NCBI GenBank assembly: GCA_905612235.1
Contig: CAJQRF010000011.1
Span: 40,835-104,834, forward strand
Length of the DNA stretch: 64,000 bases
Source of the DNA: an uncultured Pelagibacteraceae bacterium
GTDB taxonomy: Bacteria; Pseudomonadota; Alphaproteobacteria; Pelagibacterales; Pelagibacteraceae
Direction of reading: 5' to 3'
Made by a program: the position numbers and the translations under genes
Shown: piece after piece, positions 14,885 to 34,004 of the stretch
How positions within the stretch are numbered: the first letter of the stretch is position 1
Layout: every line of letters starts with the position of its first letter
Notes under the pieces: model-generated
What the model was told of the DNA's origin: nothing
Databases searched by the model: none
What the model saw: only the letters and a program-made list of their open reading frames with translations

Positions 14885-14914
14885 AACTAATAAATTTTAA
14901 GGAATTAAATTAGC

Positions 14915-15643: not shown

Positions 15644-15657
15644 AAAAATCTTTGTAA

Positions 15658-16272
15658 TTACATTTCACCAACTAATTGAGCTAAAACATAAAAAGCCAAG
15701 AAGGACATAAATATAATAATTAATATATTTATTATTTTCCAGATTTCTTCAGTTTTAAGATAGTTAGATAAATGCTTAGAGGCATATCCAATGAAAAAGA
15801 AAAATATTATTGATGATGTGGATGCTCCCAAACCAAAAAATATTTTTTGTTTTAACATAAGATCTTTAGAAAAATTACCTAAGAAAAAAACAGTATCAGA
15901 ATACACGTGTGGATTAAGGTAAGTAAAACCTAATGTTTTAAATATGATTGGTATCAATGATTCTTTATTATTCTTAACACTTAAATTCAATTTATCTATT
16001 TTAGTATTAATTTTACTCCATATAAAATGTAATAAAAAAATTAATAATAATATATTTAAAATAAATTCAATAAATGGTGTAAAAAAATCTTGAAAAAAAT
16101 GAAATACAAAAATTCCTAAAAAAATTAATAAAAAATCAGAAATTGAACAAATCAAACAAACAATAAAGGTGTACTCTTTTTTTAAACCCTGCTCTATTAC
16201 AAAAATATTTTGTGCTCCTATGGCTAAAATCAAACTCATTCCAGTAACAAAACCAAGGATTAAGTAACTCAT
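15658..16272 (-). CDS. LysE/ArgO family amino-acid exporter
   Basis: 204 aa, six-TM pattern, N-terminal GxxxGxSLILAIGAQN typical of LysE. Confidence 0.75.
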   Translation of the reverse strand: MSYLILGFVTGMSLILAIGAQNIFVIEQGLKKEYTFIVCLICSISDFLLIFLGIFVFHFFQDFFTPFIEFILNILLLIFLLHFIWSKINTKIDKLNLSVKNNKESLIPIIFKTLGFTYLNPHVYSDTVFFLGNFSKDLMLKQKIFFGLGASTSSIIFFFFIGYASKHLSNYLKTEEIWKIINILIIIFMSFLAFYVLAQLVGEM

Positions 16273-18226: not shown

Positions 18227-20002
18227 TTAAACTTGTTGAACCTTCATGTCTTTAATATTGATACCAGCTACTTGAACGGGTTTTTTCATAGCATCTCTTC
18301 TAAAAGGTTCACCCAATTCTTGGTTTAAAATTATTTCTATAAAAGTGGTTATGCCTTTTTTTTGATCTTCACATGATTGCTTGATTGCATTAGTAGTTTC
18401 TTCCATGGTTTTCACCGTAATACCTTTTAATCCACATGCGTCAGCTACTTTGGCATAACTTAATTCTGGATCTAACTCTGTACCAACGAAATTATCATCA
18501 AACCATAAAATAGAATTTCTTTTTTCAGCTCCCCATTGGTAGTTTCTAAAAATTACCATAGCAATCGCTGGCCATTCTTTTCTTGCGCAAGAACTCATTT
18601 CATTCATGCTGATGCCAAAAGCTCCGTCACCAGCAAAACCAATCACTGGGGTTTTAGGACAACCAATTTTTGCACCTAAAATAGATGGAAAGCCATAACC
18701 GCAAGGGCCGAAAAGTCCTGGTGCTAAATATTTTCTTCCTTTTTCAAAAGTTGGGTATGCATTTCCGATTGCACAATTATTACCTATATCACTAGATATT
18801 ATAACATCTTCCGGCATTCCTGCTTGAATAGCTCTCCACGCTTGTCTAGGTGACATTCTATCCTTATCTCTTTCTCTAGCCTCTTTATTCCAAACAGTTC
18901 CTTTGTCATCGTCTTCATGATCTAAACTTGATAATTTTTGTAACCAAGCAGATTTTGTTTGGTGAATTAAATTTTTTCTTTTTTCTCTACCAGTATCACC
19001 AGCATCAGATGAAAGTTTATCAAGTATTTGTTTCGCAACTAATTTTGCATCTCCACAAATCCCAACTGTTACTTTCTTGGTCAAACCTATTCTATCAGAA
19101 TTCATATCAACTTGAATTATACTTGCATCTTTAGGCCAATAATCCATTCCATAACCTGGTAAAGTTGAAAAAGGATTTAATCTTGTTCCAAGAGCTAAAA
19201 CAACATCAGCTTTAGAAATTAATTCCATTGCTGCCTTTGATCCATTGTATCCAAGTGGTCCAACTGCAAGAGCGTGGCTACCTGGAAAACTATCATTATG
19301 TTGATATCCCGAACATACAGGTGCATCTAATTTTTCTGCAAGTTTTTTACAATCCTCTATAGCTCCTCCAATAACAACACCTGCGCCTGATAAAATAACT
19401 GGAAATTTTGCTTCAGATAACAATTTTGCAGCTCTATTAATTGCTTCAAATCCTCCTGCTTGTCTTTCCAATCTAACTATTGGTGGTAACTCAATATCAA
19501 TAACTTGAGTCCAATAATCTCTTGGCACATTTATTTGTGCTGGAGCTGAACCTCTTATAGCTTTTTCAATGACACGATTTAAAACTTCTGCCATTCTTGA
19601 TGCGTCTCTAACTTCTTCTTGATAGCAAACCATATCTTTAAATAAATTCATTTGTTCTACTTCTTGAAATCCACCTTGACCCATTGTTTTATTTGCTGCT
19701 TGAGGTGTCACTAAAAGTAATGGAGTATGATTCCAGTAAGCTGTTTTTATTGGTGTTACTAATCCTGTAATACCTGGTCCATTTTGCGCAATAACCATTG
19801 ACATTTTTCCAGTTGATCTTGTATATCCGTCAGCAATTAAACCACCGTTAGTTTCATGAGCAACATCCCAGAATGTAATACCTGCTTTTGGAAATATATC
19901 TGAAATCGGCATAAATGCTGAGCCGATAATTCCAAAAGCATGTTCTATGCCATGCATTTGCAGCACTTTTACGAAAGCTTCTTCTGTTGTCATTTTTGTC
20001 AT
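18227..20002 (-). CDS. xsc: sulfoacetaldehyde acetyltransferase
   Basis: From the ATG at 20002 the protein starts MTKMTTEEAFVKVLQMHGIEHAFGIIGSAFMPISD, a characteristic Xsc N-terminus, with the ThDP motif GDGAFG...N. The 59 extra codons in the track ORF run into the divergent promoter and are rejected. Confidence 0.85.
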   Translation of the reverse strand: MTKMTTEEAFVKVLQMHGIEHAFGIIGSAFMPISDIFPKAGITFWDVAHETNGGLIADGYTRSTGKMSMVIAQNGPGITGLVTPIKTAYWNHTPLLLVTPQAANKTMGQGGFQEVEQMNLFKDMVCYQEEVRDASRMAEVLNRVIEKAIRGSAPAQINVPRDYWTQVIDIELPPIVRLERQAGGFEAINRAAKLLSEAKFPVILSGAGVVIGGAIEDCKKLAEKLDAPVCSGYQHNDSFPGSHALAVGPLGYNGSKAAMELISKADVVLALGTRLNPFSTLPGYGMDYWPKDASIIQVDMNSDRIGLTKKVTVGICGDAKLVAKQILDKLSSDAGDTGREKRKNLIHQTKSAWLQKLSSLDHEDDDKGTVWNKEARERDKDRMSPRQAWRAIQAGMPEDVIISSDIGNNCAIGNAYPTFEKGRKYLAPGLFGPCGYGFPSILGAKIGCPKTPVIGFAGDGAFGISMNEMSSCARKEWPAIAMVIFRNYQWGAEKRNSILWFDDNFVGTELDPELSYAKVADACGLKGITVKTMEETTNAIKQSCEDQKKGITTFIEIILNQELGEPFRRDAMKKPVQVAGINIKDMKVQQV

Positions 20003-20109
20003 AAAATATCTTTTTAAATAAATTTTTCTTAATATTGGCGTTTTTTTGCTTAATGTCAAAAAACTTACTTTAATTATATCAAATTTAGGTCTATATCCAG
20101 TAAGAAAAA

Positions 20110-20397
20110 ATGTCTCAAACAGATTTAATAATTCATGATGAAAAAGATAACGTTGCAGTAGTTGTTGTTGAAAAAACAACGAAAAATCAAGAATGCAATG
20201 GTTGGATTATGGAAAACGATAAAACCATTAACATTACATCAATCAATGAAATTCCATTAGGTCATAAAATAGCTCTACAGGATCTTAAAGAAGGCGATAC
20301 AATACTAAAATATGGTCATGATATTGGTAAAGTTGTTAAGCCAATAGCAAAAGGTGATCATGTTCATGTTCACAATGTCAAAACTAAGAAGTGGTAA
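20110..20397 (+). CDS. suyA: UxaA-family small (SAF-domain) subunit, probable (2R)-sulfolactate sulfo-lyase subunit alpha
   Basis: 95 aa SAF-like N-terminal module of the altronate-dehydratase family, encoded as a separate gene. Divergent from xsc. Confidence 0.6.
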
Positions 20398-20401
20398 AAA
20401 T

Positions 20402-21568
20402 ATGGAAATTCCAAAAAGTTTTTTAGGTTTTAAAAGAGAAAATGGCAGAGCTGGTACTAGAAATCATGTGATTATCCTGCCAGTTGATGATATTTCAAAT
20501 GCTTGTGCCGAAGCTGTTGCAAATAATATTAAAGGAACAATTGCATTACCTCATTCTTATGGAAGACTTCAATTTGGCGCTGATTTAGAATTGCACTTTA
20601 GAACAATGATTGGAACTGGAAGCAATCCAAATGTTGCAGCAGTAATAGTTATTGGAATTGAACCTAAATGGACAAAAAAAATAGTGGATGGAATTGCAAA
20701 AACTGGGAAACCTGTTGAAGGTTTTCATATTGAGCGCACTGGAGATATTGGCACAGTTATGAAGGCTTCAAAAAAAGCTCAAGAATTTGTGATGTGGGCA
20801 TCTGAAAAACAAAGAGAAGAATGTCCTTTAAGTGATTTGTGGATATCAGTTAAGTGTGGAGAATCTGATACAACTTCTGGATTGGCTGCAAACCCAACAG
20901 TTGGAAATTTAATGGATAAATTAGAACCATTAGGAGTTCATTTGTGTTTTGGAGAAACATCAGAGCTTACGGGGGCTGAAACTGTTTGTGCTAAGAGAGG
21001 TTCTACACCAGAGGCTTCTGAAAAATTTATGAAGGCGTGGAACTCTTATAACGATTTTATACTTAAAGAGGCAACTGATGACCTTTCAGAAAGCCAACCT
21101 ACTGCAGGAAATATTGCAGGAGGTCTTACAACAATTGAAGAAAAGGCATTTGGGAACTTTCAAAAGATAGGGGCATGTAAGTTTATAGATGTTTTGGGGC
21201 CAGCAGAAGAACCTAAAAAAGGAAAAGGTCTTTACTTTATGGATACTTCATCTGCAGCAGCAGAATGCGTAACTCTTCAAGCAGCAGCTGGTTTCAATAT
21301 TCATTTATTTCCAACAGGTCAAGGTAACATTGTAGGAAATCCTATTGAACCTGTTATTAAATTAACAGCTAATCCGTTAACTGTTAAAGGTATGGGCGAA
21401 CATATTGATTGTGATGTTTCAAAAATACTTACACGTGAGATGAACATGTCTCAAGCTGGTGATGAATTAATTAAAACCACAATAAGAGTAGCTAACGGTA
21501 GACTAACCTGCGCAGAAGCATTAGGTCATAAAGAGTTTGTAATGACTAAACTTTACAGAAGTGCGTAA
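20402..21568 (+). CDS. suyB: UxaA-family large subunit, probable (2R)-sulfolactate sulfo-lyase subunit beta
   Basis: 388 aa UxaA C-terminal-type protein starting at the ATG at 20402, 4 nt after suyA. The split two-gene architecture matches SuyAB. Confidence 0.6.
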
Positions 21569-21963
21569 TGACAAAATCTGAAAATGATTGTTTTTTATGC
21601 AGTAGAGCAAAAAACGAATGTATTTATTCGAGTAAGTTTGTGTTTGTTATTAGGGATAATAAATTTCCTGTTACCAAACACCACACATTAATTGCAACCC
21701 ATAGACATGTTTCTGATTTCTTTGATTTAAATAATGAAGAACTTAATGATTTATCTAATGTACTTAAAAAACAAAGACAATTATTAATAAACTTAGATAA
21801 AGAAATTACTGGTTTTAATGTAGGGGTTAATGCTGGTGTCGATGCAGGTCAATCAATTATGCACTGTCATATTCATTTAATTCCACGAAGAAAAGGTGAT
21901 ATGGATAATCCTAGAGGTGGCGTTAGAGGAGTGATACCATCAAAACAAAAATATAATAAATGA
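21568..21963 (+). CDS. HIT family nucleotide hydrolase/transferase
   Basis: 131 aa with the histidine triad HCHIHLIPR. Start overlaps the suyB stop (TAATG). Confidence 0.85.
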   Translation: MTKSENDCFLCSRAKNECIYSSKFVFVIRDNKFPVTKHHTLIATHRHVSDFFDLNNEELNDLSNVLKKQRQLLINLDKEITGFNVGVNAGVDAGQSIMHCHIHLIPRRKGDMDNPRGGVRGVIPSKQKYNK

Positions 21964-22880
21964 ATAAAGATTATTTTTCAAAAGTAAGAATCTTAGATGG
22001 TGGCATGGGACAGACCCTACTTCAAAAAGGATTAAAGGCTAAAGGATCTCTTTGGTCAGCTACTGCATTGATTGAAGAAAAATATCACCAACTAGTAATA
22101 GATACCCATTTAGATTTTATAAAATCTGGAGCAGACGTCATTGTTACCAATAATTTTGCTGCACGAAGATCAAGAACTCTACAAAATAATGTAGATGAAC
22201 ACTTTAATTATGCTAATAAAAAAGCTGGGGAACTTGCTCTGAAAGCAAAAGAAGTTTCAAAAAAAAATATTTTAATAGCAGGTAGTTTGCCAGCTCAATA
22301 TGATACTTATGTACCTGATGAAAGAGATCAAAATTTAATAAAGGAAGATTTTTATGATCAAGCTAATTTATTAAAACCTTTTATTGATTTTTTTTACTTA
22401 GATGTTTTATCTAGTATTAGAGAAATTGAAATTGCATTAAATGTGGTTGAAAAAATGAATCTTCCTGTTTTGATTGGAATGCATATTAGCGAAAATGGTA
22501 AATTACCTTCAGGTGAAACTATAACTAAAATGGTCGAAACATGTAAAAGTAAAAATTGGTTAGGTTTAATTGCGTCATGTGTTTCGCCAGAAATTATAGA
22601 AAATACTATTGATGAGATTAGATCATTAAAAATTTCTTTTGGCTTTAAAGCAAATCTTTGGAAAGAACAACCACTGCCAGTTGGCGAAATTGTTAGAATA
22701 GATGCAGCTGGTTTTGGAGAAAACCCTGTTGTTGTTTTGGGTACTAGAGATGAGATTACAGCAGAAAAGTTTTATGACTTTTCAAAAAAAATGGTTGATA
22801 AAGGTGCTACTATTTTAGGTGGATGCTGTGAGACAAAACCAGCTCATATTAACGCTATTTCCGAATTGAAGCAGATCTAG
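21960..22880 (+). CDS. homocysteine S-methyltransferase (MmuM/BHMT-type)
   Basis: LDGGMGQ N-terminus and zinc-ligand cysteines (SCVSPE, GGCCETKP). Start overlaps the HIT stop (ATGA). Confidence 0.8.
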   Translation: MNKDYFSKVRILDGGMGQTLLQKGLKAKGSLWSATALIEEKYHQLVIDTHLDFIKSGADVIVTNNFAARRSRTLQNNVDEHFNYANKKAGELALKAKEVSKKNILIAGSLPAQYDTYVPDERDQNLIKEDFYDQANLLKPFIDFFYLDVLSSIREIEIALNVVEKMNLPVLIGMHISENGKLPSGETITKMVETCKSKNWLGLIASCVSPEIIENTIDEIRSLKISFGFKANLWKEQPLPVGEIVRIDAAGFGENPVVVLGTRDEITAEKFYDFSKKMVDKGATILGGCCETKPAHINAISELKQI

Positions 22881-23319
22881 CTTTCTTAATTCTCCATCTA
22901 GATCCTTCTCTAACTATATAACCTACGCAATTTTTTGCTCCACACTTGCAAACAAATTGTTTATAGTCCTCATCATAACCAAATCCATAATCATAAGATA
23001 ATTCTTCACCTTTTTTTATATCTTTAATAGCAGTAATCCATAGTTTCAAACCTTTACCTTCTACTTCACAATTTGGATTGCAAGAATGATTGATTAATCT
23101 TGCATCATTATACTTAAAGTCTCCATCCAGATCATATCTGCTGTTCAAATTAAATAAATATATTGCTTTATCGTTATCAAATTTTGGATTTGTGTCGGTT
23201 TCTTTTTTTGTGATGAGCTTACCTTTATAATTAATAACTAATTTTCCAGATTTTATATTTTTTGTTGCATAAAGACCTTTATTATCAATATTTGATTTTT
23301 TAATTTTATATAATTTCAT
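22855..23319 (-). CDS. SET-domain protein (putative protein-lysine methyltransferase)
   Basis: 154 aa; NHSCNPN, ELSYDYGF and a post-SET CKCGAKNC. 3' end overlaps the convergent methyltransferase gene by 26 nt. Confidence 0.8.
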   Translation of the reverse strand: MKLYKIKKSNIDNKGLYATKNIKSGKLVINYKGKLITKKETDTNPKFDNDKAIYLFNLNSRYDLDGDFKYNDARLINHSCNPNCEVEGKGLKLWITAIKDIKKGEELSYDYGFGYDEDYKQFVCKCGAKNCVGYIVREGSRWRIKKARSASIRK

Positions 23320-23321
23320 AG

Positions 23322-23626
23322 TTATTTGTTTGTACTGGTAAATACATAATATGCAACAGCTTCAATTTCTTCAGGGGTTAAAATACCTTCCCAAGGTGGC
23401 ATAACTCCAGCACCATTTGTCACAGCATAAATAATCTGATCAATCTGCAGTTTAAGCATATCAAGATTTGGACCAATATCGCCTGATGATTCTGCAGATT
23501 TCAAAGTGTGACAAGTCCCACACGCTGCTTTATTGTTATAAATCTCTAATCCTAAAATCATTTTTTCATCAGCAAAAGAAACTTTTGAAAAAAAAATAAA
23601 ACTAAGATGAGTAGTTTTTTTTTCAT
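23322..23626 (-). CDS. class I c-type cytochrome, apparently split by a frameshift between signal peptide and mature domain
   Basis: Mature domain 23322..23561 has a CGTCH heme site and a VMPPW Met-ligand region but no signal peptide. An ATG at 23626 opens MKKKLLILVLFFF... in another frame; one extra nt in the T9 run (mRNA sense) at 23588-23596 would join them. Confidence 0.65.
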
Positions 23627-23635
23627 ATATAAAAT

Positions 23636-24739
23636 CTATATTGCTTTTGGAGGTATCGTTTTGGGTGCATTAATCCGTTTACTTATTTGCCTTCTTATAT
23701 AAGAAACTGCAACACCAAAAAATAAAGCTATAAAAATTGACAATATTCCATAAACAATTGGGTAGTTATTTGATAAATTATAAATTGTATTTCCAAAATC
23801 ACTAATCTCTGCGATTTTATTTGTTGGAAGTGTTAAGCTTGCTTTTCCACTTTCTTTATTTTTAAAAAAAGTTTCATATGCCATCAGCAGTCCAATTGAG
23901 AGCATAAGCACAGCTAATAAGGCTTTAAGTTGAGACCCCTGAAGTCTTTGTCCAATTTTTTGACCTACATGAACTCCAGCAATAGATCCTGTGATTAGTA
24001 TTAAAACAAGCATTAAATCAATTGTTTGATAGGTGAAAGCGTGAGAGATTGTAACAAATCCTGTTACGAATATAGTTACAAATAATGAAGTGCCAGGAAC
24101 AAGTTTTGTTGGCATGCCAATTATATATATCATTGCTGGCACCATTAAAAATGCTCCACCCACACCCATAATAGCAGAGACAAAACCAACAATAACACCT
24201 AATAAAAGTGGAACTAAAGCGCTTTCATAAACTTTAGATGTCTTAAATCTCATTCTAAAAGGAAGTCCATGTATCCAGTAATGAGTATGTAATTTTTTTT
24301 TTATTGGAATTTTATTTTTGAAAATATTAAGTTCTTTGAGTCCATCTCTAAGCATGAAACTGCCAATGATTGCCAATACATACATGTATGCTAACGCGAT
24401 TACTATATCTATTTTACCAATTCCTTTAAAATAACTGAATGTTAAAATTCCAATAAAAGTTCCTGCTAACCCACCAGTAATTATTAACCAACCTATTTTA
24501 ATATCTAATGTTTTTTTAAACCAATGAGTGAGAGCTCCAGATGATGATGAGGCTAAAATATTATTTGCTTCATTTGCTACTGCATAAATTGGAGGTATGC
24601 CCATAAAAATTAACAAGGGGGTCATCAAAAATCCTCCCCCCACACCGAATAATCCAGATAAAAAACCTACGCTATAACTTACGAAAAGTATTAAAATTAC
24701 GTTTATTTGAACTTCTGCTATGGGTAAAAAAACTTCCAT
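23636..24739 (-). CDS. TauE/SafE family sulfite/organosulfonate exporter-like membrane protein
   Basis: 367 aa, internal duplication with FGVGGGFLMTP and MGVGGAFLMVP motifs. Confidence 0.8.
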   Translation of the reverse strand: MEVFLPIAEVQINVILILFVSYSVGFLSGLFGVGGGFLMTPLLIFMGIPPIYAVANEANNILASSSSGALTHWFKKTLDIKIGWLIITGGLAGTFIGILTFSYFKGIGKIDIVIALAYMYVLAIIGSFMLRDGLKELNIFKNKIPIKKKLHTHYWIHGLPFRMRFKTSKVYESALVPLLLGVIVGFVSAIMGVGGAFLMVPAMIYIIGMPTKLVPGTSLFVTIFVTGFVTISHAFTYQTIDLMLVLILITGSIAGVHVGQKIGQRLQGSQLKALLAVLMLSIGLLMAYETFFKNKESGKASLTLPTNKIAEISDFGNTIYNLSNNYPIVYGILSIFIALFFGVAVSYIRRQISKRINAPKTIPPKAI

Positions 24740-24795
24740 AAAATATTTAGTTTATAAATATTCTTGAAATATAATAATGTCAACTAGTAGATAGC

Positions 24796-25146
24796 TTAAT
24801 AAATAGTTGCGCCAAAGACTTTAACATCATCATCTTCGACACCAAGCACTAAACGCCCTAAGAAATCCCCTGGAATCGTATTACTATTCTGTTTATAAAT
24901 AACTGTTACATGAAGGTTTCTTCTTAAACAGCCCAATACTTCTTTTTTATCTGATAAACTTGTTAGCAACTTGTTATTTGCCCATTGTTTCCCCAGCTCC
25001 ACTTCATTAGCTCCAAAAAGCATTTTTGTTGAAAAATCTCTTGTAAAACCACCGTAATCTTTAATATTAGACGACTTTACGAGATTTTTCCAAATAGGGT
25101 TGGCTATTTTTATAATCTCTTCGTCAGTTTTCTTGAGAAGATCCAT
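24796..25146 (-). CDS. hypothetical protein (116 aa), immediately downstream of aprA
   Basis: Soluble-looking ORF with no motif I recognise. Sits 16 nt after aprA on the same strand. Confidence 0.5.
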   Translation of the reverse strand: MDLLKKTDEEIIKIANPIWKNLVKSSNIKDYGGFTRDFSTKMLFGANEVELGKQWANNKLLTSLSDKKEVLGCLRRNLHVTVIYKQNSNTIPGDFLGRLVLGVEDDDVKVFGATIY

Positions 25147-25162
25147 TTATTTTTCTGATAAT

Positions 25163-27022
25163 TTAAGAAGCTTTCTTTTTCTCTTTTTCATCAACTATAT
25201 GGTAAACAGGAACTTTTTCTAAAGTAAATTTTCCAGTTTGGGGATCTCGTCTTGATACAGTCAAGCAATGCCAGTTTTCATCATCTAATTTCATGTGATC
25301 ACCACGATAATAATAACCAGGCCAACGAGTTTCTTCACGAAATAAAGTGTGTTCTGTTACACATTGAGAAGTTAAAGCACGGTGTTTTAACTCCCAAGCA
25401 CGCATAAGTTGGTGGTAATCTTCAGCTCCTACATTTTCTAAATCTTCTTCTAACCATTTAAGAAGTTCTAAACCTTTTTTAAGCATATTGCCGTTTGTCA
25501 TATAATTAGTAGCAATACCTCCAACGTATTCATCCATAATTCTTTGTAGACGTTGAAGACCTTGAATTGGAGAAATATAGCTTGGAGAAACTGTTCCTCC
25601 AGTAATTTCATTACGACCTATGGTATAATTTTCTAATGGTTTATAAATAACTTTTTTAAAATTTTCACACTGTTTTTCAGAAACATTTATATTTTCTGCT
25701 TTTTTATCTTCTATATATTTTACTGCTGCTTTTGCAGCTAAACGTCCTTCGGTAAAAGAGCCTGAAGAAAATTTATGAGCGCTACCTCCAACAGTATCTC
25801 CTGCTCCAAAAAGTCCTTCAACAGTTAACATTCTGTTGTATCCCCAGAAATATTCTGGTGGGGAAAGATCTTCTGGACCGCTTACCCAAGCACCTGAACA
25901 GGTGGCATGAGATCCCATTACGTAAGGTTCAGAAGTAGTTAGTTCAGGATTAGTATACTTTGGATCAATATTTTGAGATGCCCAAACTACAGCTTGACCA
26001 ACAGTCATGCCAAGAAAATTTTCCCACCCAACAGTCTCTAGGTGTGGATCTTGAAATGCTTCAGTTGTCACCATTTGAATTGGCCCTCTACCAGCAATCG
26101 TTTCTTGAATAAATGCATGATTTCGTAAACATGTTGGTGTTGGATGATGATCAATATATTCACCAACTAATTCTTTAGTTTGATCATACCATTTTTTTTC
26201 GTAATTTTCTCCGTTTGCATTTTGAGTATAAGTTTTTAAATGTAAGAAATAAGCACCTACTGGACCATATCCATCTTTAAATCTACATAAAACAATTCTG
26301 TTTTCCATTTGAGTCATTTTAGCGCCAACAGCAATTGGTAATGCATAAGCAGAACCATTACTCCATGGTGCGTACCAAGTTCTTCCCATACCTTCACCTA
26401 CAGCTCTTGGTTTAAAAATATGTGATGCTCCACCAGCAGCTACAATTACTGTTTTAGCGCGAAAAACATAATAATCTCCCGTGCGCATATTAAAACCAAC
26501 TGCACCACCTACTCTATTCTCGTTCGTCTCATCCATTAGTAAATGAGTTATCATAATTCTATTATATATTTTATCAGCAGATTTTTTTGCTGCTTCAGCA
26601 ACAATTGGTTTGTAACTTTCTCCATGAATCATTATCTGCCATTTACCTTCTCTTAGATAACGACCAGTTTTTTCATTTTTCATCATTGGCAAACCCCACT
26701 CATCAAACATATGTACTGTTGAGTCAACATGACGAGCCATATCATAGCCAAGATCTTCTCGAACCATACCCATCAGGTCATTACGTGCATATCTAACATG
26801 ATCTTCAGGTTGATTCTCATCCCACTGCATGCCCATGTAACAATTAATTGCATACAGTCCTTGAGCTACTGCACCGCTTCTATCTATGTTTGCTTTTTCA
26901 ACACAAATGATTTTTAAATCTCTTCCCCAATGTCTAGCTTCAAAGGCAGCACCAGTTCCTGCCATCCCGCCCCCAACAACAAGTACATCACAATCTTCAA
27001 AATGTGTTTTATGTTTGGCCAT
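25163..27022 (-). CDS. aprA: adenylylsulfate (APS) reductase alpha subunit
   Basis: 619 aa flavoprotein, VVGGGMAGTGAA FAD fold, AprA-length and pattern; overlaps aprB by 1 nt. Confidence 0.9.
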   Translation of the reverse strand: MAKHKTHFEDCDVLVVGGGMAGTGAAFEARHWGRDLKIICVEKANIDRSGAVAQGLYAINCYMGMQWDENQPEDHVRYARNDLMGMVREDLGYDMARHVDSTVHMFDEWGLPMMKNEKTGRYLREGKWQIMIHGESYKPIVAEAAKKSADKIYNRIMITHLLMDETNENRVGGAVGFNMRTGDYYVFRAKTVIVAAGGASHIFKPRAVGEGMGRTWYAPWSNGSAYALPIAVGAKMTQMENRIVLCRFKDGYGPVGAYFLHLKTYTQNANGENYEKKWYDQTKELVGEYIDHHPTPTCLRNHAFIQETIAGRGPIQMVTTEAFQDPHLETVGWENFLGMTVGQAVVWASQNIDPKYTNPELTTSEPYVMGSHATCSGAWVSGPEDLSPPEYFWGYNRMLTVEGLFGAGDTVGGSAHKFSSGSFTEGRLAAKAAVKYIEDKKAENINVSEKQCENFKKVIYKPLENYTIGRNEITGGTVSPSYISPIQGLQRLQRIMDEYVGGIATNYMTNGNMLKKGLELLKWLEEDLENVGAEDYHQLMRAWELKHRALTSQCVTEHTLFREETRWPGYYYRGDHMKLDDENWHCLTVSRRDPQTGKFTLEKVPVYHIVDEKEKKKAS

Positions 27023-27492
27023 TAATAATAGACACCTTTTTTAAATGAATCTTTAGGAATTGATGGTAGTTCTTTTTTTGTGTTTAATCCTTTAGGTTCA
27101 TTATAAAGAATCTGAGATTTAATTTCACCTGGATTAGGCTTTTCTCCTTCAGCAAGTTTTGGAATAAATTTACCCCAAGGCTTGGTTGTTATAGGAGAAA
27201 CAAAGTTTTTTTCTTTGCCATTTCTAAATTTTATCTTCCAAGAGATTGTACCTTTTTCTTCTTCTCTTCTAACTCTTACGCTGTGACCCATTGGAGCAAA
27301 GTCAGCGTACCCACGAACATCTATTGCGTGATTGGGGCAAGCTTTAACGCAAGCATAACATTCCCAACAAAAATTAGGTTCAATATTTACAGCACGTCTA
27401 ATCGTTTCATCAATGTGCATAATATCAGATGGGCAAATATCTACGCAGTGTCCGCAACCATCGCAGCGAGTCATGTATACAAATGTTGACAT
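27022..27492 (-). CDS. aprB: adenylylsulfate (APS) reductase beta subunit
   Basis: 156 aa, two [4Fe-4S] motifs (CDGCGHCVDICP, CWECYACVKACP) plus the AprB C-terminal tail. Confidence 0.9.
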   Translation of the reverse strand: MSTFVYMTRCDGCGHCVDICPSDIMHIDETIRRAVNIEPNFCWECYACVKACPNHAIDVRGYADFAPMGHSVRVRREEEKGTISWKIKFRNGKEKNFVSPITTKPWGKFIPKLAEGEKPNPGEIKSQILYNEPKGLNTKKELPSIPKDSFKKGVYY

Positions 27493-27597
27493 TTTAATTT
27501 ATGCCTTTCTTTAAACTTTTACTCAATTTGGATAGCTCGTTTATCAAGCTTCATTAAAATCGAATTAATCTTATTATGTATATATTTAGTGTTCATA

Positions 27598-28398
27598 TTA
27601 ATAGTGTTTTGGTGCCTCACGTTTAATTCCTAAGCCAAATCGTTTAGGTGCATCAGCTTCAGGAGGTAAATTATCTCTTGATCCATCGGCTTCAGCTAAA
27701 TTTTTTTGAATTGCTGCTCCTGGCTTATAAAACATGTGTGCAAATTTTGACCAGTAAACTCCACCAAATAAGACTAGGTTAGAAACGCCATATAAAACTA
27801 AAAATACCTTATCATCCCATCTGTCATTTAAATTTAAAGATTGTAAATAAGACCAAATTAATCCAAACAAAGATGTAGCAATAAGTGCAAGCACAAATAA
27901 ATCTGCTTTAATAATTCTGTACCAAGGTTGTGCTTCTGAGTAAACATCTACTCTTAAGAACAGCCAAAACCAACTTCCACCTAGAACAGTCATAAATGCA
28001 CCTGCATGCCAAATTATAGGCCATGCCGATGGTGTGTTAGAAGATGAAGAAGTATAACAAAAAATCATAACAGCCGAAGCAATCCAAAATAAAATAGTTC
28101 CATACATTCCTAGTAAATGTGCAACTCTTCTTTTGCCGGCGCCTAACTCCGAAGTAGTTCCAATATCGTAGACTACAGATTTAACAATAATAGAAGCTCT
28201 TTCTCTAGTTCCTAATACTCTTGTCGCAGATTTTTTTGCTTTTTTTGCATTTTCAAAAAAATATTTTACATTTTTTTTATGAATTATATCAAGCAATGTT
28301 CCCATAGCCGCGAGCACCACCATTACAATTAAAAACAATTGAATATAGAGAGGCGAAACTATATCTGTGAGCGTTGAAAATGGATTGTTATAAATCAT
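27598..28398 (-). CDS. aprM: AprM-like membrane anchor of APS reductase
   Basis: 266 aa polytopic protein directly upstream of aprBA, the aprM-aprBA arrangement described for sulfur oxidisers and SAR11. Assignment rests on context plus topology. Confidence 0.7.
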   Translation of the reverse strand: MIYNNPFSTLTDIVSPLYIQLFLIVMVVLAAMGTLLDIIHKKNVKYFFENAKKAKKSATRVLGTRERASIIVKSVVYDIGTTSELGAGKRRVAHLLGMYGTILFWIASAVMIFCYTSSSSNTPSAWPIIWHAGAFMTVLGGSWFWLFLRVDVYSEAQPWYRIIKADLFVLALIATSLFGLIWSYLQSLNLNDRWDDKVFLVLYGVSNLVLFGGVYWSKFAHMFYKPGAAIQKNLAEADGSRDNLPPEADAPKRFGLGIKREAPKHY

Positions 28399-28413
28399 TA
28401 CACCTCTAAAATT

Positions 28414-28448
28414 AATATAGACGGTCTTTTGAAAGAACCGTCTATATT
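28414..28448. promoter_or_regulatory. long near-perfect palindrome (attenuator/terminator or operator) just upstream of the aprM ribosome-binding site
   Basis: AATATAGACGGTCTTT-TG-AAAGAACCGTCTATATT: 12 bp, a 1-nt bulge, then 3-4 bp. It lies 40 nt after the CADD-like stop and 15 nt before the aprM SD (AGAGGTG). Confidence 0.5.
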
Positions 28449-28487
28449 GTCTCTATAAATATCTTAAATTTATTGTACTAAAATCAA

Positions 28488-29159
28488 CTAAGCAGCTACT
28501 TGCATTGGAATATTATGCTTAACTGCCATTCCAGTTAAAAAATTCCAAAGATATTTAGCTGTAGATAAAGCTGATTTTTCCGCCTTAACTTGTTCAGCTA
28601 CAGTTAAACCATCAAGTAATTTTTCACATGCTACTCTGTGGTATTTGTCAGCAGTTTTATGAACTTCAAAAAATTCCAATCCTTCTTTTGAAGAAACTCC
28701 ATAATGATTTTTTAGTCCTCTAATCTTAGTTTCAGCAATTTCTGGAATTTGTCTTTCGTAAGTGTAAAGAGAGGCTAAACCTTCTGCATAACTAGCTCTT
28801 CCATTTTTGAAAAAATTATCAATCATATCTTCAGTAAACTTTTCTTTAGTAACTGAATCTATTTTTGATTTATCCGCACCCATAGCTGATGCAAAATTTT
28901 TCCAAAGTTTAGGATGATCTGCGTTTTGGTTTTCTTCATCTTGAAGATTTTCAAGTAAAATTTTTCTTTTCTCGATATCTTCACACAAAGAATGAGTAGC
29001 ACTAATATAACGTGGAAACGCTTTTACATGTTGATAATACTGCTCAGCATAATCTTTTATTATTTCTCTAGTTAGTTTGCCTTCATTCCAAGATTTGTAA
29101 AATGGATGATTTAGTAAGTGGTACTGGTCCAGTTTTTTGTTTAGTTCTTTTGAAAACAT
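28488..29159 (-). CDS. CADD/PqqC-like heme-oxygenase-fold di-metal oxygenase
   Basis: Aligns by eye along its length with Chlamydia CADD (CT610): HPFYKSW..G.LT, YYQHVKAFPRYISA.HS.C, LL.NL.DEEN, LW..F, LYTYERQIPEIA..KIRGL, H..AD..H. Confidence 0.8.
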   Translation of the reverse strand: MFSKELNKKLDQYHLLNHPFYKSWNEGKLTREIIKDYAEQYYQHVKAFPRYISATHSLCEDIEKRKILLENLQDEENQNADHPKLWKNFASAMGADKSKIDSVTKEKFTEDMIDNFFKNGRASYAEGLASLYTYERQIPEIAETKIRGLKNHYGVSSKEGLEFFEVHKTADKYHRVACEKLLDGLTVAEQVKAEKSALSTAKYLWNFLTGMAVKHNIPMQVAA

Positions 29160-29267
29160 TTATTCCTCCTGAGTTAATAATTTTAATACTTACTTTTTTC
29201 TTAACTTTAATCAAGATACATTTCTTAAATTTATAGAAGGTTAGCCTTCAACCAAAGGTTGTGTAAT

Positions 29268-29642
29268 TTATTTTAATTTACCTTTTTCTCTTAGTTCTTT
29301 TCTGATTTTTGTGGCTGAAATTTTCTGAATTTCCTCAGACAAAACTATTTTTTCAATTTTGTAACCAACTCCTCTACCGTAGCAAATGTTTGTAATATTT
29401 GGCACAAGAACAACTTTAAATCTATTTTTAAATTTTGGGTCTAGTCTCTCAGTTATTTTTAATTTTACTTCGTTAAAATCAAATGGATTATCATCTACCC
29501 CTTTGACATCTCTTACCTGTATGCAAACTTGTCCTGTTTTCTTAATTATTTTTTCAAATAATGCGTAGTGTCCATCATGGAAAGGCTGCCATCTTCCAAG
29601 CATTTGTGCTGTTGGTTTTTTGTTATCCCACGCGTAAGACAT
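29268..29642 (-). CDS. small HxGH nucleotidyltransferase (NMNAT/cytidylyltransferase-like)
   Basis: 124 aa; GRWQPFHDGH (HxGH) and ISATKIR (ISxTxxR) motifs of the nucleotidylyl transferase superfamily. Confidence 0.65.
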   Translation of the reverse strand: MSYAWDNKKPTAQMLGRWQPFHDGHYALFEKIIKKTGQVCIQVRDVKGVDDNPFDFNEVKLKITERLDPKFKNRFKVVLVPNITNICYGRGVGYKIEKIVLSEEIQKISATKIRKELREKGKLK

Positions 29643-29644
29643 TG

Positions 29645-30052
29645 TTATTTAATTTCCCTTGAAATTTTTGCTGCCCATTCTTTAGCATTTTGAGTTGTTA
29701 CATGGTAATCATATTTTTCTGGTTTTACAAATAATGCATTTGTATCATCAAATCTTCCTTTTTTTATAGTATCTACCCATACCGTATAATCAGCATTAAA
29801 TAACTCTCTAGTTTTAGGCAACGGACAAATAAAGTCTGCAACTACACGATGCCCTTCTTTGATATACTTGTCAGCATAATCTGACATCCTTTTAGCTTGT
29901 CTTAATCTCGCTTCTGGTGAAAAATCCCAATCATTAAGCTGTTCTCTTATTTTGTCCGCATTAAGCCATTTTGCGTCTAGTAAGGCTGCAAGTTCAGAAG
30001 CCAAAGTTGTTTTTCCAGATCCTGGCAAACCCATTACAAGAATTTTCTTCAT
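29645..30052 (-). CDS. small P-loop kinase, adenylylsulfate (APS) kinase-like
   Basis: 135 aa; GLPGSGKTTLA Walker A, then NADKIREQLNDWDFSPEARLRQAKRM...VVADFICP, paralleling the CysC pattern D..R..L...LGFS..DR.EN.RR...FISP. Confidence 0.6.
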   Translation of the reverse strand: MKKILVMGLPGSGKTTLASELAALLDAKWLNADKIREQLNDWDFSPEARLRQAKRMSDYADKYIKEGHRVVADFICPLPKTRELFNADYTVWVDTIKKGRFDDTNALFVKPEKYDYHVTTQNAKEWAAKISREIK

Positions 30053-30073: not shown

Positions 30074-31303
30074 TTATGCGGTAGCAAGTCTTGGTAGTGG
30101 CTTCTCGTCAATCGGCAAGTGGACTAAAGTTGCAAAAAAAGAAAGAGCAATAGATAAATACCAAGCATAATCAAATGACCCATATTCATCATAAAAATAC
30201 CCTCCTAAATAAGCACCTAAAAATGATCCTATTTGATGACTAAAAAATACTAACCCATACAATGTTGCTAAATATTTTGTACCAAAAATTTGTGAAATGA
30301 TTCCGTTTGTTGGCGGAATAGTTGCTAACCAAAGAAATCCATAGAGCACACCAAAACCTATTGCTACATAAGTTGATGTAGGAAGAATTAGAAACAAAAT
30401 TAGTACAATTCCACGAGCAAAATATAAAATACTCAATAATATTTTTTTACTATATTTTCCTGACAAGTATCCAAAAGTTAGTGTGCCAAAAACATTAAAA
30501 AGACCTATTAAAGATAAAATTGCAGTAGCTGTCCATATTTCAAATCCACGTTCTTGAATGTAACTAGGTATGTGTGCTGAAACTAAAGTTATATTAAAAC
30601 CACAAACAAAGAAACCAAATGTTAAAAGTATAAAACCTTTATGATTAAATGCTTCTTTTAGAGCTTCTGTGAGAGTTTGATTGTCTACTTTAGTGCTGTC
30701 GCTTATATTCTTTTCTTTCTTAACTTCGCGAAGAAAGATCGCAGCAATTACTCCAAATAAAACTAGGTACAAATATGTGTTTAGTGTTTTTTCCCATCCA
30801 AACGCAGATAATGCGAATTTTGTGTATATAGGAGAAAAAAAATAACCAATTGATGCCATAGCAACCACAATTCCTATAGCCATACCTCTGGTTTTGTTTG
30901 GAAAATGCTTTCCAACCGCAGCAATCTGAACACTTATTGCTGTCCCACCTAAACCAATTCCAATTAGTAAACCTAAATTAATTTGAAAAAATATTCCTGT
31001 GTTTGGTCCTGAATAAAGCAAATAAATTCCTAATGCTACAAAGCAAGATGCAATTATTGTAACTTTTGCACTTCCAATTTTATCTGCTAAAGCACCAAAG
31101 ATTGGTGCAAACATTCCCCACATCAACATTTGCAATCCTATTGCTAAACCAAACTCTGTAATTGTGGACTGTAAATCTTTTACAAAAAAATCTGTAAATA
31201 ACCCAAAGACCATACGGAGTCCCATAAATACCGCAACTATTAAGCAAGCAGAAATAAGTGTAATGAGAGCTACTTGATTTGGAAAAAATTTTTCTTTTAT
31301 CAT
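30074..31303 (-). CDS. MFS transporter
   Basis: 409 aa, 12-TM pattern. Start overlaps the metC-like stop (ATGA). Confidence 0.85.
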   Translation of the reverse strand: MIKEKFFPNQVALITLISACLIVAVFMGLRMVFGLFTDFFVKDLQSTITEFGLAIGLQMLMWGMFAPIFGALADKIGSAKVTIIASCFVALGIYLLYSGPNTGIFFQINLGLLIGIGLGGTAISVQIAAVGKHFPNKTRGMAIGIVVAMASIGYFFSPIYTKFALSAFGWEKTLNTYLYLVLFGVIAAIFLREVKKEKNISDSTKVDNQTLTEALKEAFNHKGFILLTFGFFVCGFNITLVSAHIPSYIQERGFEIWTATAILSLIGLFNVFGTLTFGYLSGKYSKKILLSILYFARGIVLILFLILPTSTYVAIGFGVLYGFLWLATIPPTNGIISQIFGTKYLATLYGLVFFSHQIGSFLGAYLGGYFYDEYGSFDYAWYLSIALSFFATLVHLPIDEKPLPRLATA

Positions 31304-32478
31304 TTAATAAATTTTAAAGAACTTTTTAAATCATTTATTAAATCCTTAGGATCTTCAAGGCCGATATGTAAACGAACTAGGTGTTCATTTTTTTCAAATT
31401 TAAAATAACGTCTTGTTCCTAGTTCAACTGGATCTGTATAAACAACAAGACTTTCAAATCCTCCCCAACTATAGCCTATTCCAAAAAGCTCTAAAGAATT
31501 TACAAATTTATATATTGAGTTTTTACTCTTACTTTTTATAATTAAACTTAATAACCCTGATGCTCCTGAATAATATTTTTTCCATAATTTAAATTCTTTT
31601 GACGAAGTTTTGTAAGGGTATAATATTTTTGATATTTTTTTTTGATTTTTTAAAAAATTAATAACTGTTTTTGTACTTTCTTGATGCTTGTCCATTCTTA
31701 TATCTAATGTTCTTAATCCTCTTATAATTAAATAAGCATCATCTGGAGATAAACGATAACCTGATAAGTGATTGTACCACCAAACCTTTTTATAAACTTT
31801 TTTATTAACCGCAACAGTTCCCCCCATCACGTCGCTGTGGCCCGAATAATATTTAGTTGCTGACGTGATTGCCATATCAAAACCTAATTTTAATGGTTTA
31901 AAAAAATAGGCAGTTGCCCAAGTATTGTCTATAGCTGTTAAAATATTTTTACTTTTAGCAAAAGAAACTACTTTCCCTAGGTCCTGCATTTCAAATGTAT
32001 TGCTACCAGGATTTTCTACGTAAATTAGTTTAGTTTTTTTATTAATTTTATTTTTTAAGTCTTCAAAATTATTAGGGTTATACCAAACTGCCTTTACATT
32101 AAATTCTTTTAATAAATCATCTGTAAGTTTTTGTGTAGGTCTATACACGCCATCTGAAATTACTATTTCATCACCTGGTCTGCATATACTCATTATAGCT
32201 AAAACAACAGCACTAAATCCTGTTGGTGTTAAAAAAACTTGATAGGCATCTTCTAATCCTCTTAGAAATTTTTGTAATTGAACTGTTGTTTGCGTCCCTT
32301 GTCTTCCATAATCCCAATGTTCAACATCTTTATGTTCTGCAATATCTTTTTGATGTTTTCTTAATTCTTGCATCGTTTTAAATAATATTGTCGATGCACG
32401 TACTACAGGAGGATTAACTGATCTTGTATTATAATCTTTAGCTGCTGTTTTTAGGTATGTTTTTATTGATCTTTTCAT
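31300..32478 (-). CDS. metC: PLP-dependent cystathionine beta-lyase family enzyme
   Basis: TSATKYYSGHSDVMGG PLP-lysine motif of Cys/Met metabolism enzymes. ATG at 32478 preferred over the GTG at 32517. Confidence 0.78.
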   Translation of the reverse strand: MKRSIKTYLKTAAKDYNTRSVNPPVVRASTILFKTMQELRKHQKDIAEHKDVEHWDYGRQGTQTTVQLQKFLRGLEDAYQVFLTPTGFSAVVLAIMSICRPGDEIVISDGVYRPTQKLTDDLLKEFNVKAVWYNPNNFEDLKNKINKKTKLIYVENPGSNTFEMQDLGKVVSFAKSKNILTAIDNTWATAYFFKPLKLGFDMAITSATKYYSGHSDVMGGTVAVNKKVYKKVWWYNHLSGYRLSPDDAYLIIRGLRTLDIRMDKHQESTKTVINFLKNQKKISKILYPYKTSSKEFKLWKKYYSGASGLLSLIIKSKSKNSIYKFVNSLELFGIGYSWGGFESLVVYTDPVELGTRRYFKFEKNEHLVRLHIGLEDPKDLINDLKSSLKFIK

Positions 32479-32564
32479 AAAATATTTGATAACAAAATAG
32501 GAGAATGCTATATCCACCGGATAAGGTCAATCAGATTAACAAAAAAAATAAGGAGATAAAAAAT

Positions 32565-33749: not shown

Positions 33750-33925
33750 AAACCTGGTCCACACACCCGAAGGTGCATGAACAAAAGTTTTTGGTTCGTC
33801 GTTTTAGGCGCTACCGCCGAACCCGCCACTCCACTTGTTTAGCGCTGCTTAGTGGAGTTTTCTGCCCTATAAGCTTGAACCTTTCGGTTTTTCCTTATCT
33901 GGCCAGTTAAGAGTTGCCTCTTAAG
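33750..33925 (-). ncRNA. unassigned structured small RNA (multi-hairpin, about 170 nt)
   Basis: ORF-free patch, much more GC-rich than its flanks, between convergent genes. Read on the minus strand it forms hairpins capped by GCAA (33914-17), GAAA (33882-85) and UUCG (33768-71), plus a 7-bp hairpin at 33829-57. A closing helix CUGGCC/GG(A)CCAG is followed by U5. Confidence 0.6.
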
Positions 33926-34004
33926 TCAAATACATTTAACCACATTAAAAAAAAAATTAAATCACTATTTAGTTGTTTTATAAGTCTAATAACTAACCTG
34001 TTAA

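Follow-up and report, generated by a model that had tools for sequence, protein, structure and literature searches.

What becomes of adenosine 5'-phosphosulfate (APS) in a bacterium that makes it from sulfite and has no ATP sulfurylase (Sat) in view? The question is raised by a gene island between 18.2 and 32.5 kb of a 64,000-nucleotide stretch of contig CAJQRF010000011.1, from an uncultured Pelagibacteraceae bacterium. This stretch, here called the window, is SAR11-like, has a G+C content of about 30% and represents half of a 128-kb NCBI contig. The genomes of SAR11 carry aprBA, the genes for APS reductase, but neither sat nor cysDNCHIJ; the presumed role of AprBA is to detoxify the sulfite that organosulfur catabolism releases (PMC5069961). 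Pelagibacteraceae have aprAB, suyAB and xsc as core or near-core genes and sulfate pathways that have been termed incomplete; on aprBA, a core pair of SAR11, purifying selection is very strong (PMC12636525). Published SAR11 metabolic maps end at APS. Since the lack of sat, cysDN and cysH beside SAR11 aprBA has been published, the gap itself is not new. What appears to be new is the comparative picture described here, in which substitute candidates replace sat in its position. Sat has probably been displaced by a HIT protein, as an APS hydrolase or phosphorylase, by a minimal nucleotidyltransferase (NT) resembling ATP sulfurylase in function, or by both. This proposal draws on sequence and gene order, and a full-text literature search found no paper tying a HIT protein or NT to the SAR11 APS gap.

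The gene order of the island is as follows. On the minus strand, xsc is divergent from a plus-strand unit, suyA-suyB-HIT-mmuM. A minus-strand run reads, in the order of transcription, metC, a major facilitator superfamily (MFS) gene, KIN, NT, CADD, aprM, aprB, aprA, a gene for a 116-aa protein, TauE, a cytochrome c gene and a SET-domain gene. NT is a 124-aa HxGH nucleotidyltransferase, and KIN a 135-aa APS-kinase-like P-loop protein. All island genes listed in the first-pass annotation, made from the sequence alone, lie where it had placed them; left unmentioned there were the 116-aa gene, CADD and a CysQ-like gene 5 kb away. Xsc, AprA, AprB, CADD and MetC score above the curated cut-offs of their equivalog or subfamily models. 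The same island is found again in dozens of independent metagenome and genome contigs, so that the clustering of these genes is not due to chance. Promoter and terminator scans gave no signal over shuffled controls, and operon limits therefore rest on gene spacing only.

The APS-forming step is complete. The alpha subunit of APS reductase is encoded by aprA (25163-27022, minus strand; TIGR02061, 995 bits, cut-off 642) and the beta subunit by aprB (27022-27492, minus strand; TIGR02060, 192 bits, cut-off 136; PF12139). Directly upstream, the aprM-like gene (27598-28398, minus strand) encodes a 266-aa hydrophobic membrane anchor with no Pfam match and a weak match to the QmoC membrane domain (E = 7e-4). 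The full aprM-aprB-aprA set that had been read from the sequence is thereby upheld. So is the absence of a canonical APS consumer from the window: motifs of Sat, CysD, CysN and CysH were found in none of the six frames of the 64 kb, and a Pfam scan of the other 46 open reading frames (ORFs) of the window revealed no ATP-sulfurylase, PAPS_reduct or molybdenum-oxidoreductase family. SorA and Soe were likewise absent from motif and Pfam scans of the whole 64-kb window.

The evidence that carries the proposal comes from the slot directly upstream of aprM. An AprA-anchored scan covered 80 metagenome loci and GTDB loci, designated by L numbers. ORFs were labelled by comparison with the island proteins and with Sat motifs, and key slot genes were confirmed with Pfam. 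Counts refer to loci with a visible same-strand gene directly upstream of aprM; the metagenome loci are related, and the counts describe arrangement classes, not independent events, which tempers any argument built on them. The aprM-aprB-aprA-116-aa core is constant across these loci, with few lacking the 116-aa gene, and an aprM-like gene precedes aprB in all loci examined. The slot before aprM holds NT in 9 loci (CADD-NT-aprM), without KIN there. It holds a HIT gene of the window's subfamily in 9 (pabB-pabA-pabC-HIT-aprM), with products 41-46% identical to that of the window. In 7-8 loci it holds canonical Sat (PF01747, E = 1e-76 to 1e-87, with PUA_2). The other occupants are pabC (8 loci), CADD (3 loci and the window) and other genes (7 loci). 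The slot HIT shares with the window HIT the CxFC N-terminus and the tail AGQSxLHCHIHLIPRREGDVxNPQGGxRSVIP.

Sat-bearing loci have AprA proteins 83-87% identical to that of the window and a G+C fraction of 0.33-0.41, and none of HIT, NT and KIN lies within 10 kb of them. In a neighbour-joining tree of AprA, the sat arrangement occurs in two deep clades. Loci L048 and L049, sister to one of these clades, are without sat, and KIN-NT converges there on the 116aa-aprA end. Eighteen sat-less islands are covered from upstream of aprM to suyB, and 14 of them carry HIT and/or NT: both genes in 6, HIT only in 5, NT only in 2, and NT with KIN in 1. Where HIT precedes aprM in islands that reach the suyB end, no HIT copy follows suyB, and the HIT gene therefore appears to have moved within the island. 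In Allochromatium vinosum, sat-aprMBA is one transcription unit (PMC3779200). A single slot occupied alternately by Sat, HIT and an HxGH transferase is the pattern expected if the APS-consuming step had undergone non-orthologous displacement. One or more of three small genes had at first been put forward as the missing APS step; slot occupancy singles out HIT and NT, KIN is not independent of NT, and NT fails the tests for Sat given below.

The HIT protein (21568-21963, plus strand; 131 aa) belongs to the Fhit branch of its superfamily (PF01230, E = 9e-17, 61.9 bits, cut-off 21.5). It has an HCHIHLI triad, its best matches are of Fhit and Ap4A-phosphorylase type, and its closest solved relatives are NitFhit (E = 1e-12) and the Ap4A phosphorylase Rv2613c (E = 1e-10). 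The HIT ATG overlaps the suyB stop codon by 1 nt and the HIT stop codon overlaps the mmuM start by 4 nt. HIT had been described as fused into the suyAB operon; it is translationally coupled to suyB, not fused. The coupling is kept in relatives at 58-92% identity (L001-3, L032, L115 and others). Listed HIT homologues are all from SAR11 and at least 74% identical, a list with no view beyond the clade. Fhit proteins have APS sulfohydrolase activity, and for Hint4 and DcpS phosphorolysis of APS is documented as well (PMC4613722). The window protein resembles the characterized HIT proteins of that study in its HIT fold, its HxHxHxx triad and its Fhit-like DAGQS...HxHxHLIPR motif, and the transfer of AMP from sulfate to water or phosphate, documented for HIT proteins, is the chemistry needed here. 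It differs in belonging to a separate bacterial subfamily, marked by a CxFC N-terminus and the tail NP(R/Q)GG(V/I)R, and shares no more than 30-45% identity with characterized members. The APS:phosphate adenylyltransferase (APAT) of T. denitrificans belongs to the GalT branch, whereas the window HIT belongs to the Fhit branch. On balance the evidence tips slightly towards HIT as a physiological APS consumer, either hydrolase or APAT.

NT (29268-29642, minus strand; 124 aa) is a minimal HxGH nucleotidyltransferase with the motifs GRWQPFHDGH, YGRGVGY and ISATKIR. Its superfamily membership is indicated by the invariant GRxQPxHxGH and ISAxxxR motifs, with PF01467 borderline (20.6 against 21 bits), and its AlphaFold2 model superposes on NMNAT and PPAT at approximately 2.2 A over about 75 residues. 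It does not belong to the archaeal NMNAT/NadM families, scoring 29 against 127 bits on TIGR01527 and 25 against 181 on NF002243. The NT profile covers only the N-terminal ~70 residues of MJ0541, and NT has 124 aa compared with 168-181 aa. A segment of ~35 residues after the third strand of archaeal NMNAT is missing from NT, which would leave space only for a small acceptor. That NT is a sulfate/APS adenylyltransferase is a serious possibility, rated a little under even.

KIN (29645-30052, minus strand; 135 aa) ends 2 nt upstream of NT and is a lid-less APS-kinase-like P-loop kinase. It passes the PF01583 gathering score (38.5 against 21.1 bits), but over profile positions 5-91 of 152 only; fusion relatives score 54-56 bits on the same model. 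KIN fails the APS kinase equivalog TIGR00455 (31.5 against 138.7 bits) and has 135 aa against ~180-200 aa for APS kinase, the segment after FICP being shortened. Its closest APS kinase in the PDB is 2yvu (E = 3e-6), and it also matches the NadR kinase domain weakly. The P-loop, D-x-x-R, (D/G)FS and F(I/V)(C/A)P motifs are conserved, but N-A-D stands in place of DGD. Sequence sources annotate SAR11 KIN homologues as adenylylsulfate kinase. A 'cysC' gene was reported in exactly 5 of 7 SAR11 genomes, those with aprA (Smith et al., PMC5069961).

KIN and NT form one unit, as their fusions indicate. Among 1.8 billion representative proteins, 841 relatives of KIN were found at E <= 1e-10, many of them KIN-NT fusions of about 260 aa. 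The window KIN and NT align end to end with these fusions at 41-48% identity. Invariant features of the fusions are the P-loop, N-x-D-x-x-R, F(V/I)xP, GRxQPxHxGH, YGRxVGY and ISAxxxR. They occur in Bradyrhizobium, Xanthobacteraceae, SAR11, haloarchaea and phages of Xylella, Stenotrophomonas, Xanthomonas and Clavibacter, and a single PHROG family, phrog_10255, spans both KIN and NT. Fusions to an NTP_transferase domain, to GDSL-like domains and to membrane domains also occur.

The neighbours of KIN-NT outside the island are repeatedly sulfur genes. Full KIN-NT modules adjoin sulfotransferase genes in at least four unrelated lineages, and cysQ in a further one. In Bradyrhizobium sp. LHD-71, a Sulfotransfer_1 gene follows the fusion by 15 nt. 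In Pelagibacteraceae AG-430-G14 (L051, KIN only), KIN overlaps the start of a Sulfotransfer_3 gene, and in a Flavobacteriaceae metagenome-assembled genome (MAG; L053, NT only) the order is NT, a truncated pyruvate-kinase-like gene and a sulfotransferase-like gene. A Planctomycetota MAG has a distant KIN-NT fusion between two sulfatases. In three haloarchaeal genera, megaplasmids carry an operon that runs from a sulfotransferase gene through a KIN-NT fusion annotated 'cysC' to a YqcI/YcgG gene, and on a Rhizobium plasmid KIN alone lies 1.5 kb from a sulfotransferase gene. In the alphaproteobacterium AG-404-B13 (L017), a full-scoring cysQ is directly upstream of KIN-NT inside a taurine cluster, with the order xsc, Ca/Na antiporter, cysQ, KIN, NT, EamA, pta, aminotransferase (tpa), ald. 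The APS-kinase-type motifs of KIN, together with these sulfotransferase and cysQ neighbours, point to a compact module resembling 3'-phosphoadenosine 5'-phosphosulfate (PAPS) synthase. Such a module would make PAPS or a PAPS-like donor, the NT half supplying the adenylyl anhydride. KIN had been counted as a separate third candidate for APS disposal, a status it loses here: it forms one unit with NT, and by context the unit would make PAPS.

Some features of these distant loci are recorded as observations. The YqcI/YcgG-family gene (L170:6863-7612, L171:6860-7603, L175:4861-5613) directly follows the pair of sulfotransferase and fusion. The truncated pyruvate-kinase-like gene (~325 aa; TIGR01064, 213 bits, below cut-off; L050:936-1916, L051:5004-5975, L053:1716-2723) adjoins KIN and/or NT in two Pelagibacteraceae and one Flavobacteriaceae; L051 and L053 also have a sulfotransferase next to it. 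In Casjensviridae phages (Xylella phage Sano gp35, L004:6992-7729, and relatives) the fusion is found in the early region, where it shares 40-46% identity with the SAR11-like fusion P0215 and has a MazG-like gene and one annotated as cysteine dioxygenase in its vicinity. In jumbo Ralstonia phages KIN stands alone. The phage context of KIN-NT in Xylella phage Sano and Clavibacter phage 33 is uninformative on function.

Several observations weigh against displacement of Sat by HIT or NT. The first concern the ancestry of NT. A profile search of the PDB with NT retrieved archaeal NMNAT (E = 4.5e-13), NadM and NadR; Sat was not among the matches at E <= 10. The top Foldseek matches of NT are NadM, NMNAT and PPAT, and Sat is not among the top 50. 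Members of the NT family score 12-18 bits on PF01747 against a gathering score of 24.3, and the window NT has no match. An hhalign comparison of the NT family with neighbouring Sats aligned 25 columns around HxGH with a probability of 5%. NT has neither the QxRNPxHxxH and GRDHAG motifs, both present in the genuine Sats of L158-L167, nor a PUA domain. Membership of NT in the Sat family was rejected, as Pfam at lenient E-values, the PDB profile search, AlphaFold2 with Foldseek and hhalign were all negative beyond HxGH. One source annotates an NT homologue 'ATP sulfurylase', a label that may stem from a sub-threshold Sat match.

Further points concern genomic context. In the GTDB scan, most Pelagibacteraceae genomes hold KIN-NT elsewhere, with no apr gene within 6 kb, and L001-type islands are without KIN-NT, CADD leading directly to MFS; the supposition that KIN-NT is specific to the island is thus abandoned. 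At the non-island position, KIN-NT has on one side a dimethylglycine-dehydrogenase-like gene, a methyltransferase, a creatinase-like gene and a Rieske oxygenase, and on the other a HalD-like gene, an enoyl-CoA hydratase, a CoA-binding protein and a BT1-like transporter. In Pelagibacteraceae AG-916-L09 (L034:1-12345) the order is metC-MFS-CADD-NT-TauE, with aprM, aprB, aprA and the 116-aa gene gone. Four of the 18 covered sat-less islands have neither HIT nor NT. Folate genes (CADD, pabBAC) are further occupants of the slot before aprM, and their presence and exchange there indicate a rearrangement-prone region in which adjacency is not always functional. SAR11 gene order is fluid, and the sat-bearing loci differ in other respects too, TauE, suyAB and xsc being absent from their vicinity. 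The HIT subfamily is also found in a Streptomyces phage and diverse plasmids without evident sulfur context.

These observations give some credit to an explanation in which neither small enzyme handles APS. HIT would then be a housekeeping hydrolase of diadenosine triphosphate or tetraphosphate (Ap3A/Ap4A) or of nucleoside phosphoramidates, and KIN-NT a NadR-like or CoA-synthase-like salvage pair. Proximity to apr would reflect a recombination-prone, dense region, and APS would be removed by an as yet unidentified enzyme or by non-specific hydrolysis. The explanation accords with the nearest relatives of NT by sequence and fold (NMNAT, NadM, NadR and PPAT), with the Joint Genome Institute (JGI) name of NT, phosphopantetheine adenylyltransferase, and with the weak NadR match of KIN. 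It accords also with the early-gene fusions of phages, the distance of KIN-NT from apr in most SAR11, the unrelated p-aminobenzoate (pABA) genes of the region and the 4 islands without HIT and NT. It leaves unexplained why two unrelated families with known or superfamily-level adenylyl-anhydride chemistry occupy the exact sat slot, and why sulfotransferase, cysQ and xsc recur as neighbours of KIN-NT in bacteria and archaea. NT also lacks the ~35-residue NMNAT segment, and KIN scores best with APS kinases. We consider this explanation unlikely, though the strongest of the alternatives. For KIN-NT in particular, NadR-like NAD salvage and a CoA-synthase-like pair (PPAT with DPCK) were both ranked lower, on account of the sulfur-gene neighbours (sulfotransferase, cysQ, xsc and, for the NadR case, apr) and the missing NMN-binding segment. 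A folate role for NT, suggested by its adjacency to CADD, was dropped: HIT of the same subfamily stands in the identical slot after pabBAC, and NT occurs elsewhere without pab.

Alternatively, KIN-NT might be a purely assimilatory compact PAPS synthase (sulfate to APS to PAPS) unrelated to AprBA, with APS cleared by HIT alone or by another, unidentified enzyme. There are organisms with sulfotransferase-linked KIN-NT in which the retrieved locus has no apr gene, SAR11 genomes for the most part keep KIN-NT away from the apr island, and HIT is the steadier island member (11 of the 18 covered sat-less islands, against 9 of 18 for NT). On the other side, NT without KIN lies directly before aprM in 9 loci, and in L048 and L049, which are sister to a sat clade, KIN-NT borders on the operon. 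The Sat reaction runs to ATP and sulfate when APS is supplied (PMC3779200); with APS fed by AprBA, assimilatory and dissimilatory roles are therefore not exclusive. A solely assimilatory role is improbable. A canonical sat or APAT elsewhere in the genome, outside the 64-kb window, is very improbable: the window shows no more than half of the 128-kb contig and little of the genome as a whole, and some relatives carry sat, but for Pelagibacter genomes with aprBA, published SAR11 surveys list neither sat nor cysDN (PMC5069961, PMC12636525), and the relatives' sat adjoins aprM, a position otherwise occupied here.

Displacement of Sat by HIT and/or NT thus remains the preferred reading, and the mechanism it implies would be as follows. 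(i) Xsc, acting on taurine-derived sulfoacetaldehyde, and SuyAB, acting on sulfolactate, would release sulfite in the cytoplasm. (ii) AprBA would join the toxic sulfite to AMP, forming APS and passing two electrons via AprM to the quinone pool. (iii) Sat, the task of which is conversion of APS to sulfate and an adenine nucleotide, would have been lost from the window's lineage. (iv) The suyB-coupled HIT may act in its place as an APS sulfohydrolase (yielding AMP and sulfate) or as an APAT (ADP and sulfate). (v) NT may act as a minimal ATP sulfurylase, APS + pyrophosphate <-> ATP + sulfate, with pyrophosphorolysis thermodynamically favoured. (vi) By its context, KIN would turn part of the APS into PAPS for sulfotransferases. 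The resulting 3'-phosphoadenosine 5'-phosphate (PAP) would be recycled by a CysQ-like 3'(2'),5'-bisphosphate nucleotidase (PAP/PAPS phosphatase), encoded 5 kb away (35369-36151, plus strand; TIGR01331, 203 bits, cut-off 229). (vii) TauE would export sulfate or sulfite. The steps of Xsc, SuyAB and AprBA are established functions of their families; we infer the catalysis of HIT, NT and KIN. We hold it reasonably likely that HIT, NT or both serve as physiological consumers of APS. More tentative, and falling somewhat short of an even chance, is a joint proposal: that NT founds a new family of minimal sulfate adenylyltransferases, unrelated to Sat and CysDN beyond the superfamily; that with KIN it forms the smallest known PAPS synthase, a module spread across SAR11, SAR86, rhizobia, haloarchaea and phages; and that NT or the Fhit-like HIT closes the SAR11 route from sulfite to sulfate.

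Three known systems provide comparisons. The sat-aprMBA unit of A. vinosum (PMC3779200) shares the oxidative-lineage, membrane-anchored AprM-AprB-AprA, and in relatives of the window sat is directly upstream of aprM, as in that organism. The window and the crown Pelagibacter clade differ in lacking sat, the slot being taken by HIT, the mini-nucleotidyltransferase or folate genes. Sulfite here comes from organosulfonates via xsc and suyAB, unlike in A. vinosum, where reverse dissimilatory sulfite reductase (rDsr) is involved. PAPS synthases (human PAPSS1, 1x6v; Aquifex, 2gks) and NodPQ likewise have an APS-kinase-family kinase joined to or beside an HxGH-superfamily adenylyltransferase, and sulfotransferases and cysQ are genomic partners of KIN-NT. 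In contrast to PAPS synthases, NT has ~120 aa compared with ~400 aa for Sat, without PUA domain or Sat motifs, and KIN is without the lid segment. With archaeal NMNAT, NadM and NadR, NT shares the GRFQPFHxGH, NPF and SxTxIR motifs, and in NadR, too, an NMNAT domain is joined to a P-loop kinase. NT differs from these proteins in the missing segment between the third strand and the C-terminal helix; the domain order is reversed relative to NadR, and KIN-NT neighbours sulfur genes, not NAD genes.

The O-methyl phosphoramidate (MeOPN) pathway of Campylobacter jejuni employs a phosphoramidate cytidylyltransferase (Cj1416) and a cytidine diphosphoramidate kinase (Cj1415), a name that occurs in the literature. 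In this pathway a nucleotidyltransferase makes an anhydride of a nucleoside monophosphate and an anion, and an APS-kinase homologue phosphorylates the 3'-OH to give a PAPS-like donor. KIN-NT is likened to this pair by its two-step logic alone, the fold family of the MeOPN transferase and the anion being different.

To name the APS consumer would complete the SAR11 route from the sulfur of taurine, 2,3-dihydroxypropane-1-sulfonate (DHPS) and sulfolactate to sulfate. The type of enzyme decides the energy yield: ATP for a Sat-like transferase, ADP for a phosphorylase and nothing for a hydrolase. Thousands of metagenome annotations would change accordingly. If the displacement reading is correct, the most abundant marine heterotroph is not 'incomplete' in sulfur oxidation and might gain ATP or ADP from organosulfonate sulfur. 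If NT is indeed a sulfate adenylyltransferase, it represents a third, very small solution to sulfate activation, and would account for the 'orphan' cysC-like genes beside sulfotransferases in bacteria, haloarchaea and phages. HIT, NT and KIN are small, soluble and easily expressed, which makes a long-standing gap directly testable.

The sulfite-releasing enzymes lie at the other end of the island. Sulfoacetaldehyde acetyltransferase is encoded by xsc (18227-20002, minus strand), which passes the TIGR03457 equivalog cut-off (964 against 676 bits) and scores 1032 bits on NF005713. The product has ~591 aa, the 650-aa ORF listed for it being an artefact of an upstream TTG. In relatives, xsc is also found beside suyAB. 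The latter genes encode a split UxaA-family lyase, with a suyA-like small subunit of 95 aa (20110-20397, plus strand; SAF domain) and a suyB-like large subunit of 388 aa (20402-21568, plus strand; GD_AH_C, E = 8e-85; GD_AH_second, E = 1e-32). Members of the suyA cluster are annotated '(2R)-sulfolactate sulfo-lyase subunit alpha' by JGI on the basis of KEGG Orthology (KO). The split architecture and Pfam domains match SuyAB; the naming comes from KO-based annotation, with no curated SuyB model, and SAR11 suyAB are so named in PMC12636525. The product is a putative sulfolactate sulfo-lyase releasing sulfite.

The last gene of the suyAB-HIT unit is an mmuM-like homocysteine S-methyltransferase gene (21960-22880, plus strand; PF02574, E = 7e-46). 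It has this place in the window's lineage only and is not at this position in L032-type islands. A SAM-V riboswitch precedes mmuM in HTCC1062 (PMC5069961); at the HIT/mmuM junction of the window (21900-22000), no SAM-V or SAM-II riboswitch was found even at E <= 1.

The 116-aa protein (24796-25146, minus strand), encoded 16 nt 3' of aprA, is the most constant unexplained partner of AprBA and a candidate accessory protein of it. Its gene follows aprA in all but a few of the loci examined, sat-bearing relatives included. It has no Pfam, NCBIfam or PDB match; its AlphaFold2 model (pLDDT 75) is predicted to have an NTF2-like fold, with NTF2-like Foldseek matches at TM scores of up to 0.59. There are more than 8000 clusters at 90% identity. 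The matches listed are 85-93% identical to the window protein and, at 85% identity or more, all from SAR11, affording no view beyond the clade.

In most islands the 116-aa gene is followed by that for a TauE/SafE-family exporter of sulfite or sulfate (23636-24739, minus strand; PF01925, E = 6e-43). A PF03601 (YeiH-like) membrane protein gene, absent from the window, is inserted between TauE and suyB in L104 (5845-6924), L099, L124 and L130. NCBI often calls this family a putative sulfate exporter.

Next is the gene for a SorU-like c-type cytochrome (23322-23626, minus strand). The protein is not assigned to SorU, scoring 81 bits on NF052248 (cut-off 100), and the window contains no molybdenum-oxidoreductase partner family. 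Its start codon and signal peptide (MKKKLLILVLFFF..., 23588-23626) are out of frame with the haem-binding mature part, through an apparent 1-nt frameshift at a T9 run (23588-23596). One more T would give a 102-aa protein, as in the intact 102-aa homologue of L001. The change may be a sequencing error in the homopolymer or else real, the gene then being frameshifted or a pseudogene. The cytochrome carries a signal peptide and is hence periplasmic; a role as partner of the cytoplasmic AprBA was rejected on topology. The gene 3' of it encodes a SET-domain (lysine methyltransferase-like) protein of 154 aa (22855-23319, minus strand), found also in the closest relatives L090, L091 and L094 and not in L001.

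Between NT and aprM, the CADD-family gene (28488-29159, minus strand; TIGR04305, 302 bits, cut-off 200) encodes a putative pABA synthase and is a bystander in the island. In many relatives it is replaced in place by pabB-pabA-pabC (L095:3367-5817, L090:2620-5115), between MFS/NT and aprM/HIT, an in-situ exchange of two analogous folate-precursor routes. The left flank of the island, kept in relatives, consists of metC for cystathionine beta-lyase (31300-32517, minus strand; TIGR01324, 366 bits) and the MFS transporter gene (30074-31303, minus strand; PF07690).

Beyond the island, a full-length IMES-2 RNA motif (33791-33931, minus strand; Rfam RF02035, 156 bits, E = 6e-41) sits between a 360-aa membrane ORF and an mnmA-like tRNA methyltransferase gene. 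The ORFs of 1-16000 and 56512-63470, scanned jointly, include ccmE, ccmF and ccmH families of cytochrome c maturation and a PF01515 phosphate acetyl/butyryltransferase-family gene. The same pooled ORFs contain a PF00815 histidinol-dehydrogenase-family gene (E = 3.5e-134), which could be either hisD or the gene for the DHPS dehydrogenase HpsN.

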